The notes under the pieces are model-generated. The model ran no database searches, was not told the DNA's origin, and saw only the letters and a list, made by a program, of their open reading frames with translations. From Candidatus Babeliaceae bacterium (GTDB taxonomy: Bacteria > Babelota > Babeliae > Babelales > Babelaceae), in NCBI GenBank assembly GCA_019744895.1, contig JAIETV010000002.1, forward strand, positions 6 to 64,005: DNA of 64,000 bases. The letters run 5' to 3'. Position numbers and translations under genes: made by a program. Numbering within the stretch: the stretch's first letter is position 1; every line of letters begins with the position of its first letter. Positions 1,041-4,367 of this stretch are shown in pieces.

Positions 1041-1179
1041 TTAAAGATTTCCTGGTGCGTATAGTTGTGGGGTCACACCCGTTCCCATTCCGAATACGGC
1101 AGTTAAGTCTACAACGTCGATGATACTTACCTGGTAACGGGTTGGAAAAGTAGATAGTGCCAGGATTAAATTTAAGCTC
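1041..1179 (+). repeat. Direct repeat copy A (5S rRNA plus ~10 nt leader and start of terminator)
   Basis: TTAAAGATTTCCTGGTGCG...GTGCCAGGATTAAATTTAAGCT recurs at 1804-1943. The 5S part reads identical by eye, with a single 1-nt indel in the trailer. Confidence 0.9.
1051..1166 (+). rRNA. rrf: 5S ribosomal RNA, copy 1
   Basis: About 116 nt with the 5S hallmarks CCCGTTCCCATTCCGAAC-like (CCCGTTCCCATTCCGAATAC) and a terminal helix CCTGGTG / TGCCAGG. It lies ~100 nt after the 23S end. Ends are accurate to about 2 nt. Confidence 0.93.
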
Positions 1180-1208
1180 CAGCTCAAAAAAGCTGGGGCT
1201 TTTTTTTT
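1175..1208 (+). terminator. Rho-independent terminator after 5S copy 1
   Basis: 10-bp stem AGCTCCAGCT / AGCTGGGGCT (one G:U), loop CAAAAA, followed by T8. Confidence 0.8.
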
Positions 1209-1283
1209 AATTGATATAGTTTTGGGTGTATGGTTACGTAATGGTCAATTAATTATAGTAAGTATCTATAGGGTCTGTGTGTT

Positions 1284-1745
1284 ATGAAAAAAACTCTTTT
1301 TCTTTCGTTATTTTTTGGACTGTTTGCTTCATTTTGCCTTTCTGCTCAGGTGCAGCAGGTAATGTCTGCAAATTTAGAAAATCAAATTCATTTACCAACA
1401 GGACGACATATAATTGCAGATCTATGGGAATGTGAGAATTGTGATTATCGGACTGACATAGAAAAAGTACTGCGTGAAGCTGCCGACAAAGCCGGTGCTA
1501 CCGTGCTTAATATATATGTTCATAAATTCGACCCTAGCGGAATGACCGCAACTGTAGCCCTTTCAGAATCGCATATTACTTTTCATACCTGGCCTGATGA
1601 TGGTGGCTTTGTAGCGTGCGATATTTTTACCTGCGGTACTAACGCGTTACCAGAAAAAGGTTTAGAAGTTCTTATAGAATACTTTAAGCCTAAAAAACGT
1701 ATTATACGCATACTCGGGCGTGGACAGGCTGCAGAAAATAAATAA
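1284..1745 (+). CDS. speH: S-adenosylmethionine decarboxylase proenzyme (small pyruvoyl class-1 type) with N-terminal signal peptide
   Basis: GRHIIADLWEC, the LSESHITFHTWP self-cleavage motif (E-S) and DIFTCG match the small Thermotoga/Bacillus-type AdoMetDC. The N-terminus MKKTLFLSLFFGLFASFCLSAQ looks like a Sec signal. Confidence 0.8.
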   Translation: MKKTLFLSLFFGLFASFCLSAQVQQVMSANLENQIHLPTGRHIIADLWECENCDYRTDIEKVLREAADKAGATVLNIYVHKFDPSGMTATVALSESHITFHTWPDDGGFVACDIFTCGTNALPEKGLEVLIEYFKPKKRIIRILGRGQAAENK

Positions 1746-1803
1746 GTACTTCCGGTTTTATTAAAAGCAGTTATACTTGAAGAATAATTAGATTTCTAAA
1801 TTT

Positions 1804-1943
1804 TTAAAGATTTCCTGGTGCGTATAGTTGTGGGGTCACACCCGTTCCCATTCCGAATACGGCAGTTAAGTCTACAACGTCGATGATACTTACCTGGTAA
1901 CGGGTTGGAAAAGTAGATAGTGCCAGGATTAAAATTTAAGCTT
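1804..1943 (+). repeat. Direct repeat copy B (5S rRNA plus leader and trailer)
   Basis: Second copy of the 1041-1179 segment, 763 nt downstream. Confidence 0.9.
1814..1929 (+). rRNA. rrf: 5S ribosomal RNA, copy 2
   Basis: Reads identical to the 1051-1166 sequence. Confidence 0.93.
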
Positions 1944-1970
1944 CAGTAATAAAAAACTGAGGCTTTTTTT
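1939..1970 (+). terminator. Rho-independent terminator after 5S copy 2
   Basis: 9-bp stem AGCTTCAGT / ACTGAGGCT, loop AATAAAAA, then a T-run. The stem differs from the copy-1 terminator by a compensatory C:G to T:A change. Confidence 0.8.
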
Positions 1971-2485: not shown

Positions 2486-2953
2486 CTATCTCCTTTCTTT
2501 GCAGTTGCATGAACAGATATGTTCGCATCCGCACATTTTTGACATCCAAACGGCAAAAGCGGTAATAATGGCACAAATAAAAATGCCCCAGGCAATATCA
2601 TAACCTATAATTTCTGTAGGCCAATTAGGTAAAACCGCATAATTAGTTAGTTCGTAGGTCCCATAAACTATAAGGCCATATATACCGCCCTTTACTAATG
2701 CGTACCAATATGAACCATGCGTTCGAGGAAGCACAAAAAGAATAATTCCTTTAACAATAAGTGCCCAGACTGCGATAGCAGCAAGAGTTTTAAGGTCTAA
2801 TATTCCTGCGCTCCCCATGTTAGAAACCACTCCAAGCTTTTCTTGATACATATCTTTCATAAAGAAAAATATCCAGAGGCAGTCCAGAGCAATGAATGCA
2901 CCTAGTGACGTAACATACAGTTTGAGGGTTTGCCAATTTAAACAGTGAAACAT
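2486..2953 (-). CDS. Integral membrane protein (DUF2177-like) with Cys-rich C-terminal tail
   Basis: Four predicted TM segments. The YGTYELTNYAVLPNWP motif resembles the DUF2177 membrane family. The tail is KMCGCEHICSCNCKERR. The stop is 2 nt from the downstream gene start. Confidence 0.55.
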   Translation of the reverse strand: MFHCLNWQTLKLYVTSLGAFIALDCLWIFFFMKDMYQEKLGVVSNMGSAGILDLKTLAAIAVWALIVKGIILFVLPRTHGSYWYALVKGGIYGLIVYGTYELTNYAVLPNWPTEIIGYDIAWGIFICAIITAFAVWMSKMCGCEHICSCNCKERR

Positions 2954-3434
2954 TTACACTCCTTTTTAGGTAGTACGGGTTTTAAGATATTTTCTTAAAA
3001 GTTTACGATATAAGTAATCTAACAGTTTTTTGCTAGTGATTTTCAAGAATTTATACTAGAGATGGCCTAAATATCTTTATCTATAAGCTCTAAATTGCAA
3101 GACAAAAGGATTTTCATTTATAAAAAAATGTCCAAAAATATGATTAAGCTTTACATATTCCGATTCTTTCGCTTTTTCTGATAAAGTGTAAGGTCCGAAA
3201 AGCGCCTATTTAGGCGTGTTTTAATAATTTTTTATCAGAGCATTTACATTTAAAGCATATCGAATGCGTGATTTTATTTTCAATAATCTTTCATTTCTAC
3301 CAAATGTATAGCGCATCGCAAACATAAGCGAATGTATATTGTGACACACTCTTTTTTAGGCACCCCTAAAGATGTTACAGTTATAACTAGGGATAAAAAA
3401 ATAGTACATTAACTGTACAAAAAAGGGGGGCGCT

Positions 3435-4367
3435 ATGAAAAAAGCATTAGAATTTTTTTTATTTATATTAGTATTTTTTTTAAGCAAGTCGTATATTTTT
3501 TCACTGGATAATTTTATTGCTCAATATCAGCGGCCTATTACGGTACTGGAGATTACGGACTCTCAAGAGTTTTATACGCTTCGATTTGCCTCGCGCCAAA
3601 AAGGAGTTTTTGTTTTATTATCGCAAGCAGAAAAAATAGATTCTATAAAAAAAAGAGCTCAAGATTATAATAATATTGTTTTGCTTAATCCAAAGAAATT
3701 TACAACATCTTCTCTTGTTGAATTGGCTTCATGCGAACATTTTGATGTTACTTTGGTCCATGATTGGGCTATGTTGCAAAAAAACCCTTATATTGTGAGT
3801 GCTCTTTTGGCTTTGGGAGATTATCTTATTTTAGATGTTGCAAATACCTATGTTGATAAAATTTTATCTGAAGATCAAAAAAATAAAATTGTATGGAAAC
3901 ATGAGTTGCAATATGGCAAACAAAGAATCTGCCTAAAGAATTCTAAAACTTCCTTGGGTAAGGCACGTTGGGTTATGAGTTCTCTGGCGATTTCTCGTCA
4001 GCCATCGTATACCATTTTAAGTACGTTTACAGAAAAGAAATTAGTTAAAGGAGCGCATAAACAAACATCAGATTGGGTGGCTGGCATAAACCTCGTTTCA
4101 GCAATTATGCTTCATGTACAATTCCCAAATAATGAAATTTTACGTGAGAATATTAAACAATTTATGCAGATTAATCACAATGATCCTGTAATCGGTAACA
4201 TGATTGTTCAGGGAAAAAAGGTTAAATTGATAGATTTTGCAGATTCGCGTCGAAATGCTAATCAAGAAAAGTGCATCAAGGCAGCATTAAAGCTTTTTAC
4301 ATGGATGCATAGACCCAAAGATCCTTATGCTACTATCGAAAAGTACTCATACTATGTGAATAATTAG
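3435..4367 (+). CDS. Signal/anchor-bearing protein with C-terminal protein-kinase-like catalytic motifs
   Basis: GGGGG RBS upstream. Hydrophobic N-terminus MKKALEFFLFILVFFLS. INHNDPVIGNMIV...KLIDFAD fits HxDxxxxN ... DF(G/A) of the kinase-like fold (APH/choline/LPS kinase type). The N-terminal half is Rossmann-like (VLEITD...DVTLVHDW). Confidence 0.5.
   Translation: MKKALEFFLFILVFFLSKSYIFSLDNFIAQYQRPITVLEITDSQEFYTLRFASRQKGVFVLLSQAEKIDSIKKRAQDYNNIVLLNPKKFTTSSLVELASCEHFDVTLVHDWAMLQKNPYIVSALLALGDYLILDVANTYVDKILSEDQKNKIVWKHELQYGKQRICLKNSKTSLGKARWVMSSLAISRQPSYTILSTFTEKKLVKGAHKQTSDWVAGINLVSAIMLHVQFPNNEILRENIKQFMQINHNDPVIGNMIVQGKKVKLIDFADSRRNANQEKCIKAALKLFTWMHRPKDPYATIEKYSYYVNN

Follow-up and report, generated by a model that had tools for sequence, protein, structure and literature searches.

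The speD gene and its product

The stretch of DNA analyzed here (the window) comprises 64,000 nucleotides of a Candidatus Babeliaceae genome (assembly GCA_019744895.1, contig JAIETV010000002.1, positions 6 to 64,005 of the forward strand), and this work concerns one of its genes, speD (also called speH), located at 1284..1745 (+, stop codon included). The gene encodes a 153-aa class 1b pyruvoyl S-adenosylmethionine decarboxylase (AdoMetDC) proenzyme, as judged from the open reading frame (ORF) list, the families PF02675 and TIGR03330, and the ratio of non-synonymous to synonymous substitution rates (dN/dS), and it is bracketed by two 5S rRNA genes at the end of an rRNA operon. AdoMetDC and spermidine synthase (SpeE) are textbook cytoplasmic enzymes. 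The SpeD of the window appears to be an extracytoplasmic AdoMetDC, part of an apparent exported aminopropyl pathway in the Dependentiae that is represented here by the decarboxylase alone.

The translation of the ORF contains the motifs MKKTLFLSLFFGLFASFCLSA/QVQQ, GRHIIADLWEC, LSE/SHITFHTWP and DIFTCG. PF02675 (AdoMet_dc) matches residues 42-147 over the whole 107-position model (model positions 1-107; E 1.6e-30, 106 bits vs a cut-off of 25), and TIGR03330, the NCBIfam equivalog for adenosylmethionine decarboxylase of the Bacillus type, matches residues 39-147 with 108.7 bits (cut-off 75.65). The catalytic domain is accordingly placed at residues 39-147 (1398..1724, +), borders that Pfam, TIGR03330, the model confidence, the Foldseek matches and a domain dN/dS of 0.06-0.07 support. 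In an AlphaFold model based on 24 homologues, the predicted local distance difference test score (pLDDT) of these residues exceeds 90. The closest solved structures are the AdoMetDC proenzymes of Thermotoga maritima and Aquifex, with T. maritima on top; the best Foldseek matches are 1TLU, 1VR7 and 2III (E 4e-13), and the model superimposes on 1TLU with a template modelling (TM) score of 0.88 and a root-mean-square deviation of 1.5 A.

The residues needed for processing and catalysis are in place. Alignment to 1TLU and 1VR7 (T. maritima E62/S63) locates the predicted self-cleavage site at Glu95|Ser96 (1566..1571, +), where Ser96 would become the pyruvoyl group. In the alignment of 24 homologues, E95, S96 and H97 are invariant columns, as is P104. 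His101-Thr-Trp-Pro104 (1584..1595, +) was identified from the alignments and holds the predicted catalytic His (T. maritima H68) and the diagnostic Pro; it is followed by DDGG, where the usual form is E-x-G. The central motif SESHxxFHTWP is of the AdoMetDC type, as in the T. maritima enzyme. Cys117 of FTCG (1632..1634, +), another invariant column, aligns with the catalytic C83 of 1TLU. In T. maritima, S63, H68 and C83 are the processing and catalytic residues, and the Pro of HTWPE is reported to be present throughout bona fide AdoMetDC, whereas arginine decarboxylase (ADC) forms do not conserve it (PMC10407285). Because the Pfam and TIGR03330 matches, the catalytic-residue alignment and the AlphaFold/Foldseek fold agree, the family assignment and the domain borders are confirmed. 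By all sequence and fold criteria examined, SpeD is a class 1b AdoMetDC, and SAM (S-adenosylmethionine) decarboxylation is its predicted activity.

The loop after strand 1 holds Cys50-x-x-Cys53 (C-E-N-C, 1431-1442). Its second Cys lies three residues past a family-wide Cys and is a trait of the genus clade; T. maritima and similar cytoplasmic relatives carry the first Cys only. In an exported protein, C50 and C53 might be joined by a disulfide.

The predicted N-terminal leader

Residues 1-21 (1284..1346, +; MKK / TLFLSLFFGLFASFCL / SA|Q) are predicted to be a Sec-type signal peptide or an N-in signal anchor, based on the rule-based score, orthologue conservation and the AlphaFold model. All signal calls in this study come from our own rule-based scorer only, applied to the most upstream ATG of each ORF. 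For SpeD it found K2 and K3 (n-region charge +2), an uncharged run over residues 4-21 and a best 8-residue Kyte-Doolittle mean of 2.32. The hydrophobic core measures about 15 residues, and the candidate cleavage sites include 21|22, in the context L-S-A|Q (19-21|22). AlphaFold draws residues 1-38 as a separate, low-confidence helix outside the fold, with a pLDDT of 57-66 in the leader. The leader is followed by a variable and polar linker, defined from the orthologue alignment as residues 22-38 (1347..1397, +), which ends in the genus-conserved IHLPT. Among orthologues the linker varies from about 10 to 45 residues, with IHLPTGRH kept and no in-frame stop. Alignments of 24 and 7 orthologues place the leader outside the conserved domain and show that its character is preserved as its sequence drifts; the -1 column is Ala or Cys across the genus and is followed by a Gln/Glu-rich polar linker of varying length. 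The first 39 codons have a dN/dS of 0.22-0.51, i.e., they are constrained, yet evolve faster than the domain.

Three candidate start codons precede the domain: the ATGs of codons 1 and 27 and the GTG of codon 23. The string MKKTLF is common to the window and the orthologues L150, L151 and L002 (59-80% identical), all three of which lack Met27, and the SpeD of L003 has a single ATG before the domain. A Shine-Dalgarno-like AGGGT (1270..1274, +) is located 10 nt before ATG 1284. It was recognized by conservation of its G-run, which is found 9-12 nt before Met1 in 7/7 orthologues (as AAGGGGT, AATGGGT or AAAGGAGTG elsewhere); the 16S 3' end of two congeners reads ...CACCUCCUUUC. An internal start at Met27 was therefore rejected, since Met27 is not conserved while MKKTLF and the upstream G-run are. 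A lipoprotein processed by signal peptidase II was likewise rejected, as the sole Cys of the leader stands in A-S-F-C18 with Phe at -1 and no lipobox. Lipobox-like strings (VIAC, IGAC) do occur in a few distant homologues.

The genome encodes the machinery that a Sec signal would require, with SecY (PF00344, E 5.9e-104) and signal peptidase I (TIGR02227, 102.4 bits vs a cut-off of 47), and Dependentiae have a diderm envelope and a large Sec secretome (PMC6561590). Residues 1-21 have the appearance of a Sec signal, not of a start-codon artefact. By the positive-inside rule, the catalytic domain would be extracytoplasmic with a cleaved signal and with an N-in anchor alike.

Our scorer is lenient, with 33% of the ORFs of at least 200 aa in the window genome scoring positive, which agrees with the 44% of coding sequences with Phobius-predicted signals in Chromulinavorax (PMC6561590). 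Because of this leniency, the leader argument rests on the contrast at family level and not on the raw score. When the same ORF pipeline was applied to other phyla, one of 77 SpeD-family genes was signal-like, and weakly so, vs 4/4 congeners; the SpeD of other phyla usually starts 4-7 residues before GRH. The family-wide sample drew on 1.8 billion proteins, of which the 150 best cluster representatives were taken. Among these best 150, none of the 83 representatives with a short N-terminus was signal-like, and 13 of the 49 with an extension of at least 25 residues were, with about four more recognized by eye. Across the whole SpeD family, forms with a predicted leader recur but remain in the minority.

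These results bear out an earlier note on the same DNA, made without database searches. It had correctly named the AdoMetDC domain, the autoprocessing site and the catalytic motifs, and PF02675 now sets the domain borders that it left for a profile search. The basic n-region, hydrophobic core and small-x-small-type site (L-S-A/Q) that it described are all present, and its view that such an N-terminus is atypical for the family agrees with the 1/77 outside the phylum and 0/83 among the short representatives. Met27 does not provide the better internal start that it had considered, and the N-terminal extension is kept by the orthologues of relatives, in which MKK and the hydrophobic core are conserved.

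Genomic and metabolic context

The window genome (884 kb in 23 contigs, 94.9% complete) has Candidatus Babeliaceae and Dependentiae metagenome-assembled genomes as its closest relatives, and it contains a single PF02675 gene. No spermidine synthase was found in the window or in the 884-kb assembly, where PF01564 has no match and the best tblastn hit with a congener SpeE has an E of 0.7. SAM synthetase (metK) was not found in the window genome or in four congeners. The window genome also yielded no PF02784 ornithine/arginine decarboxylase and no match to agmatinase/arginase (PF00491), a search that did not extend to AguA and AguB. Since the genome is without SAM synthetase and without putrescine-forming enzymes, SAM and putrescine must come from the host. 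The earlier note had seen no spermidine synthase gene adjacent to speD in the window, which holds and extends to the entire assembly, and its idea that an exported enzyme could act on host SAM is strengthened by the absence of SAM synthetase from this genome and its four congeners.

A PotB/PotC/PotD-like operon for a polyamine ABC importer is located on contig C1 at about 185950-189730 (L149). These names reflect best matches, whose scores fall well short of the equivalog cut-offs. The N-terminus of the PotD-like protein is hydrophobic, and a large repetitive exported protein adjoins the operon.

The missing speE appears as a clean deletion when the congeners are compared. All three congeners sampled and a fourth related metagenome-assembled genome carry SpeD plus an unlinked, leader-bearing SpeE. 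The congener SpeE scores 300.8 against TIGR00417 (cut-off 249.55, the speE equivalog), and as this model starts at residue 19-24, the protein has 18-23 extra N-terminal residues. On the complete chromosome of a congener, speE is flanked by genes for a GspF/PilC-like protein and an alpha/beta-hydrolase. Contig C16 of the window genome carries the orthologues of these two genes (71% and 68% identical) side by side, with only a tRNA (98% identical to that of the congener) and about 280 nt of unrelated AT-rich spacer in the interval, at about 2650-3080. We therefore reject a speE hidden in an assembly gap; the flanking genes adjoin with no speE remnant between them, which indicates that speE was deleted and not missed by the assembler.

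After the loss of speE, speD shows no sign of decay. Compared with the nearest orthologues, L150 and L151, dN/dS is 0.09-0.15 for the whole gene and 0.06-0.07 for the domain, over a dS of about 1. The window branch is the shortest of the three, with about 0.025 non-synonymous differences per site, and is not accelerated. From these substitution rates, speD is estimated to be under strong purifying selection despite the loss of speE. A lone SpeD of the exported type, with no SpeE, is shared by at least 12 of the genomes sampled, across several families of the phylum; therefore, it looks like a stable state rather than a transitional one.

Distribution across the Dependentiae

We sampled 201 Dependentiae genomes, counting as strong spermidine synthases those with an E below 1e-20. 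PF02675 was present in 43 genomes and a strong spermidine synthase in 23, all 23 of which also have SpeD. SpeD is of the exported type in about 29 of 36 SpeD-bearing genomes. Predicted leaders were found on 14/21 SpeD, 11/17 SpeE and 4/7 SpeD-SpeE fusions; two more fusions are anchor-like, and four further SpeD have leaders. Examples of leaders on stand-alone SpeE are MFLIALSCIFSELSA|IQEKKFFFE (L082), MKKMTAHLLLSLIPLAVNA|NQ (L132) and MKYSMRLFSLLCLLSGQSMTA|AD (L129). The single-polypeptide fusions measure 447-540 aa (L094, L101, L103, L104, L106 and L118, in genomes G182, G097, G036, G193, G110 and G196), and most of them stand behind a hydrophobic leader. G196 has two such fusion genes in tandem, one with a leader and one without. 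A minority of genomes have leaderless SpeD and SpeE in ordinary operons (L092, L093, L097, L100, L108).

In genomes with separate SpeD and SpeE and both N-termini readable, the leader status of the two agrees in 14 of 16, with leaders on both in nine, on neither in five, and discordance in two genomes of one genus. This fits compartment matching of a two-enzyme pathway. As related genomes are not independent, the agreement is to be read as a pattern rather than as a test.

In a maximum-likelihood tree (147 columns), leader-bearing SpeD falls in at least three well-supported Dependentiae clades. A single origin of the leader is not supported by this distribution, though the backbone is unresolved; the tree points to repeated gains, or to an early gain followed by losses. 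The closest relatives outside the Dependentiae are those of Scalindua (46% identity), whose leaderless SpeD overlaps speE in an operon. AdoMetDC ancestry is thus supported, since these relatives are leaderless and reside in overlapping speD-speE operons.

The phylum also harbours a second leader-bearing family with the AdoMetDC fold, of about 150-165 aa (L156-L164, L166 and L168, in G169, G192, G012, G152, G161, G038, G024, G179 and G139). Its members have QLIETSxISxHF and IFSCK in place of SESHxxxHTWPE and FTCG; the Glu-Ser-His site is absent and the Cys stands in a different context. The family co-occurs with canonical exported SpeD, and no member was found in the window genome. These proteins may be dead, prozyme-like regulatory paralogues or may use a different chemistry.

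Probable promoter region and neighbouring genes

The 5S rRNA copies around speD are located at 1051..1165 (+) and 1814..1928 (+), each with an Rfam RF00001 score of 70.2 bits, and each is followed by a terminator hairpin in the terminator scan (1174-1201 and 1938-1965). They belong to a 133-nt repeat that is 99% identical (window 1041-1970). The 5S-speD-5S arrangement is also found at L002 5754-6718, L003 730-1649, L004 5758-6631 and L151 12-934, and the order 16S-tRNA-tRNA-23S-5S-speD-5S is shared by no fewer than four further species of the genus; in L005 and L150, only the upstream 5S is present.

After the first 5S terminator, a block at 1208..1262 (+) aligns near base for base between the window, L150, L151 and L002, and is the likely speD promoter region. 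A possible -10 element, TATAGT, lies at 1254-1259 (+); a consensus promoter scan found no site in the block.

We found no functional partner among the neighbours, which encode a DUF2177 membrane protein, an unknown 116-aa protein, an RNA recognition motif (RRM) protein, a branched-chain amino-acid carrier and a weakly kinase-like exported protein. The last is a 310-aa protein (3435-4367, +) with a signal or anchor N-terminus, no Pfam match, and faint kinase-like matches (Bud32, RfaY, GntI; E about 0.005-0.01). Its gene is single-copy in the window genome and is syntenic 2-3 kb downstream of speD in L151, L004 and L005.

A probable extracytoplasmic decarboxylase and the alternatives

The explanation we favour, with a probability of roughly 0.58, is that speD of the window encodes a working class 1b pyruvoyl AdoMetDC whose catalytic domain lies outside the cytoplasm and acts on host SAM; export, cleavage, substrate and the fate of decarboxylated SAM (dcSAM) are steps that we infer. 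Translation would begin at Met1, and MKK with the hydrophobic leader would carry the unfolded proenzyme through SecYEG. Signal peptidase I would probably cut after Ala21; otherwise the leader would serve as an N-in anchor, and the domain would face the periplasm both ways. There the proenzyme is expected to fold and self-cleave between Glu95 and Ser96 to generate the pyruvoyl group. The substrate would be host SAM, as SAM synthetase is missing from the genome and the periplasm of an intracellular diderm is presumably accessible to small host metabolites. In most pathway-bearing Dependentiae, an exported SpeE or SpeD-SpeE fusion would then turn dcSAM and host putrescine into spermidine, which may be taken up by a PotABCD-type importer. 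Such an extracytoplasmic pathway is chemically feasible, because neither SpeD, with its pyruvoyl group, nor SpeE needs an imported cofactor. In the window genome, dcSAM would most likely feed the host spermidine/spermine synthase, or the enzyme might drain host SAM, and the resulting polyamines would be imported via the retained PotD/PotC system.

Several observations weigh against this explanation, in addition to the leniency of the scorer. The -3 residue is Leu, which is permitted but uncommon, and the hydrophobic run is long enough for an anchor. The catalytic Cys117 and three other Cys would need the correct redox state in an oxidising compartment. The PDDGG variant is confined to the window SpeD, L150 and L151, while the congeners have HTWPE-x-G, and the same subclade is without the 8-residue loop insert of the congeners, which brings it to the T. 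maritima length. The Glu that follows the Pro104 equivalent is, we take it, the counterpart of human Glu247, a binder of the SAM ribose. In view of this assumed role, the PDDGG change makes a shift in substrate handling possible in the window subclade. Finally, with no aminopropyltransferase in the window genome, the lone SpeD is a candidate arginine/ornithine decarboxylase by a published rule (PMC10407285).

In L150, the closest metagenomic relative, a 300-aa thioredoxin-fold gene (1326-2228) lies directly 3' of the exported speD. Its product could help to keep the catalytic Cys of the exported enzyme reduced. The window has no such gene at the matching position.

The lone state of SpeD leads to the strongest alternative, which we still consider unlikely. 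It holds that the enzyme is exported and became neofunctionalised after the loss of speE, acting in the periplasm as an L-arginine or L-ornithine decarboxylase (SpeDA/SpeDC type) whose agmatine or putrescine would be imported by Pot. A SpeD homologue that stands alone is often a decarboxylase of arginine or ornithine, and SpeD without SpeE is the very criterion that uncovered the ADC and ornithine decarboxylase (ODC) forms (Li, Liang, Phillips and Michael, 2023, PMC10407285). The window genome has no other ADC or ODC, its subclade has changed the motif after the Pro and lost the loop insert, and lone exported SpeD recurs in at least 12 of the sampled Dependentiae genomes. However, Pro104 is retained within a central motif of the AdoMetDC type, orthologues co-occur with SpeE in four congeners, and no agmatinase is present for the use of agmatine. 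Additionally, the window branch is not accelerated and TIGR03330 scores above its equivalog cut-off. ODC forms are marked by four diagnostic Gln/Thr/Phe/Tyr residues (PMC10407285).

An uncleaved signal anchor, with the enzyme tethered to the inner membrane and its catalytic domain in the periplasm, is a variant of the favoured explanation and not a contradiction of it; we regard it as rather improbable. The uncharged run spans 18 residues (4-21), AlphaFold predicts one continuous helix over residues 8-32, and the hydrophobic N-termini of two SpeD-SpeE fusions lack a small-x-small site. In contrast, the Ala/Cys at -1, with Ser or Leu nearby, is aligned across the genus and precedes a polar Gln/Glu-rich stretch as in cleaved signals, and the h-regions of most relatives are shorter (9-16 residues).

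That the leader is an annotation artefact is very improbable. Translation would then start at Met27 (ATG 1362), the T-rich upstream sequence would be an open 5' untranslated region, and the enzyme would be cytoplasmic. The CAGGTGCAGCAGGTAATG upstream of Met27 does hold the Shine-Dalgarno-like AGGTG and AGGT, T-rich and AT-rich DNA readily encodes Phe/Leu-rich peptides, and a third of the genome's ORFs score signal-like, as stated above (33%). However, the AGG strings derive from conserved Gln codons, and Met27 is absent from the closest orthologues, in which MKKTLF and the upstream G-run are conserved. Furthermore, the N-terminal codons have a dN/dS below 1, and an open hydrophobic frame is found in about 30 divergent Dependentiae SpeD genes, as well as in SpeE and the fusions.

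Hardly credible is a leftover of a dismantled pathway, in which speE was recently deleted and speD is intact for want of time: speE is indeed cleanly deleted at the syntenic site and the window genome is the smallest of the genus (884 kb vs 1.0-1.3 Mb), but speD has no frameshift or stop and keeps all catalytic residues, its domain dN/dS is 0.06-0.07 over a dS of about 1 on the shortest of three branches, and several other families of the phylum likewise have a lone exported SpeD.

Returning to an extracytoplasmic AdoMetDC acting on host SAM, a broader and more tentative proposal is that the aminopropyl branch of polyamine synthesis operates outside the cytoplasm, by means of exported SpeD and SpeE and on host SAM and putrescine, in Dependentiae and perhaps in further intracellular bacteria. 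dcSAM is the rate-limiting metabolite of eukaryotic polyamine synthesis. A lone exported AdoMetDC might then be an unregulated source of dcSAM, from which host synthases would overproduce polyamines for the parasite to import via PotABCD.

If true, a whole two-enzyme pathway would have switched compartment, giving a parasite a novel route to an essential metabolite. The apparent switch is seen in most SpeD-bearing members of a parasitic phylum, and the window genome and four congeners are without SAM synthetase. The proposed logic is that host precursors are processed in the periplasm or in the host and the product alone is imported, which would avoid the handling of SAM and dcSAM at the inner membrane. 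The lone exported AdoMetDC also raises the possibility of an effector that rewires the polyamine or methyl-group metabolism of the host. It further suggests a caveat to the rule that SpeD without SpeE is an arginine/ornithine decarboxylase, as the host may supply the missing partner enzyme of an obligate intracellular bacterium. Our full-text literature searches returned no report of an exported AdoMetDC or SpeE, nor of polyamine metabolism in Dependentiae, and PMC10407285 makes no mention of signal peptides or Dependentiae.

Comparison with known systems

The nearest known system is class 1b AdoMetDC, as represented by T. maritima TM0655 (1TLU, 1VR7) and B. subtilis SpeD. The window SpeD has in common with these the fold, the Glu-Ser site, the catalytic His and Cys, HTWP and a domain of about 110 residues, with 39% identity over the domain. 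It differs in its 38 extra N-terminal residues with a predicted Sec-type leader, whereas the known enzymes are cytoplasmic and start 3-7 residues before GRH. It also differs in the CxxC (C50, C53), in PDDGG for PE-x-G, and in belonging to a genome without spermidine synthase and without SAM synthetase.

Like SpeDA and SpeDC, the window SpeD comes from a genome that has neither SpeE nor a canonical ADC or ODC. Unlike them, it keeps the diagnostic Pro, its congener orthologues co-occur with SpeE, and the genome has no agmatinase.

The co-occurrence, in several Dependentiae genomes, of exported canonical SpeD and an exported AdoMetDC-fold paralogue without the Ser and Cys motifs recalls an enzyme with a catalytically dead paralogue as its activator, as in the trypanosomatid AdoMetDC and its prozyme (5TVM). 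The window genome, in contrast, has a single PF02675 gene, and the Dependentiae paralogues are of single-domain class 1b size and not class 2.

Membrane-embedded spermidine-synthase-like proteins (NF037959 MFS_SpdSyn, PRK03612 type) also tie aminopropyl transfer to the envelope. In these proteins of 500-830 aa, of which Scalindua provides examples (L087-L089), a polytopic N-terminal domain is fused to the SpeE domain, whereas the SpeD and SpeE of Dependentiae are ordinary soluble domains, each predicted to stand behind a single short leader.

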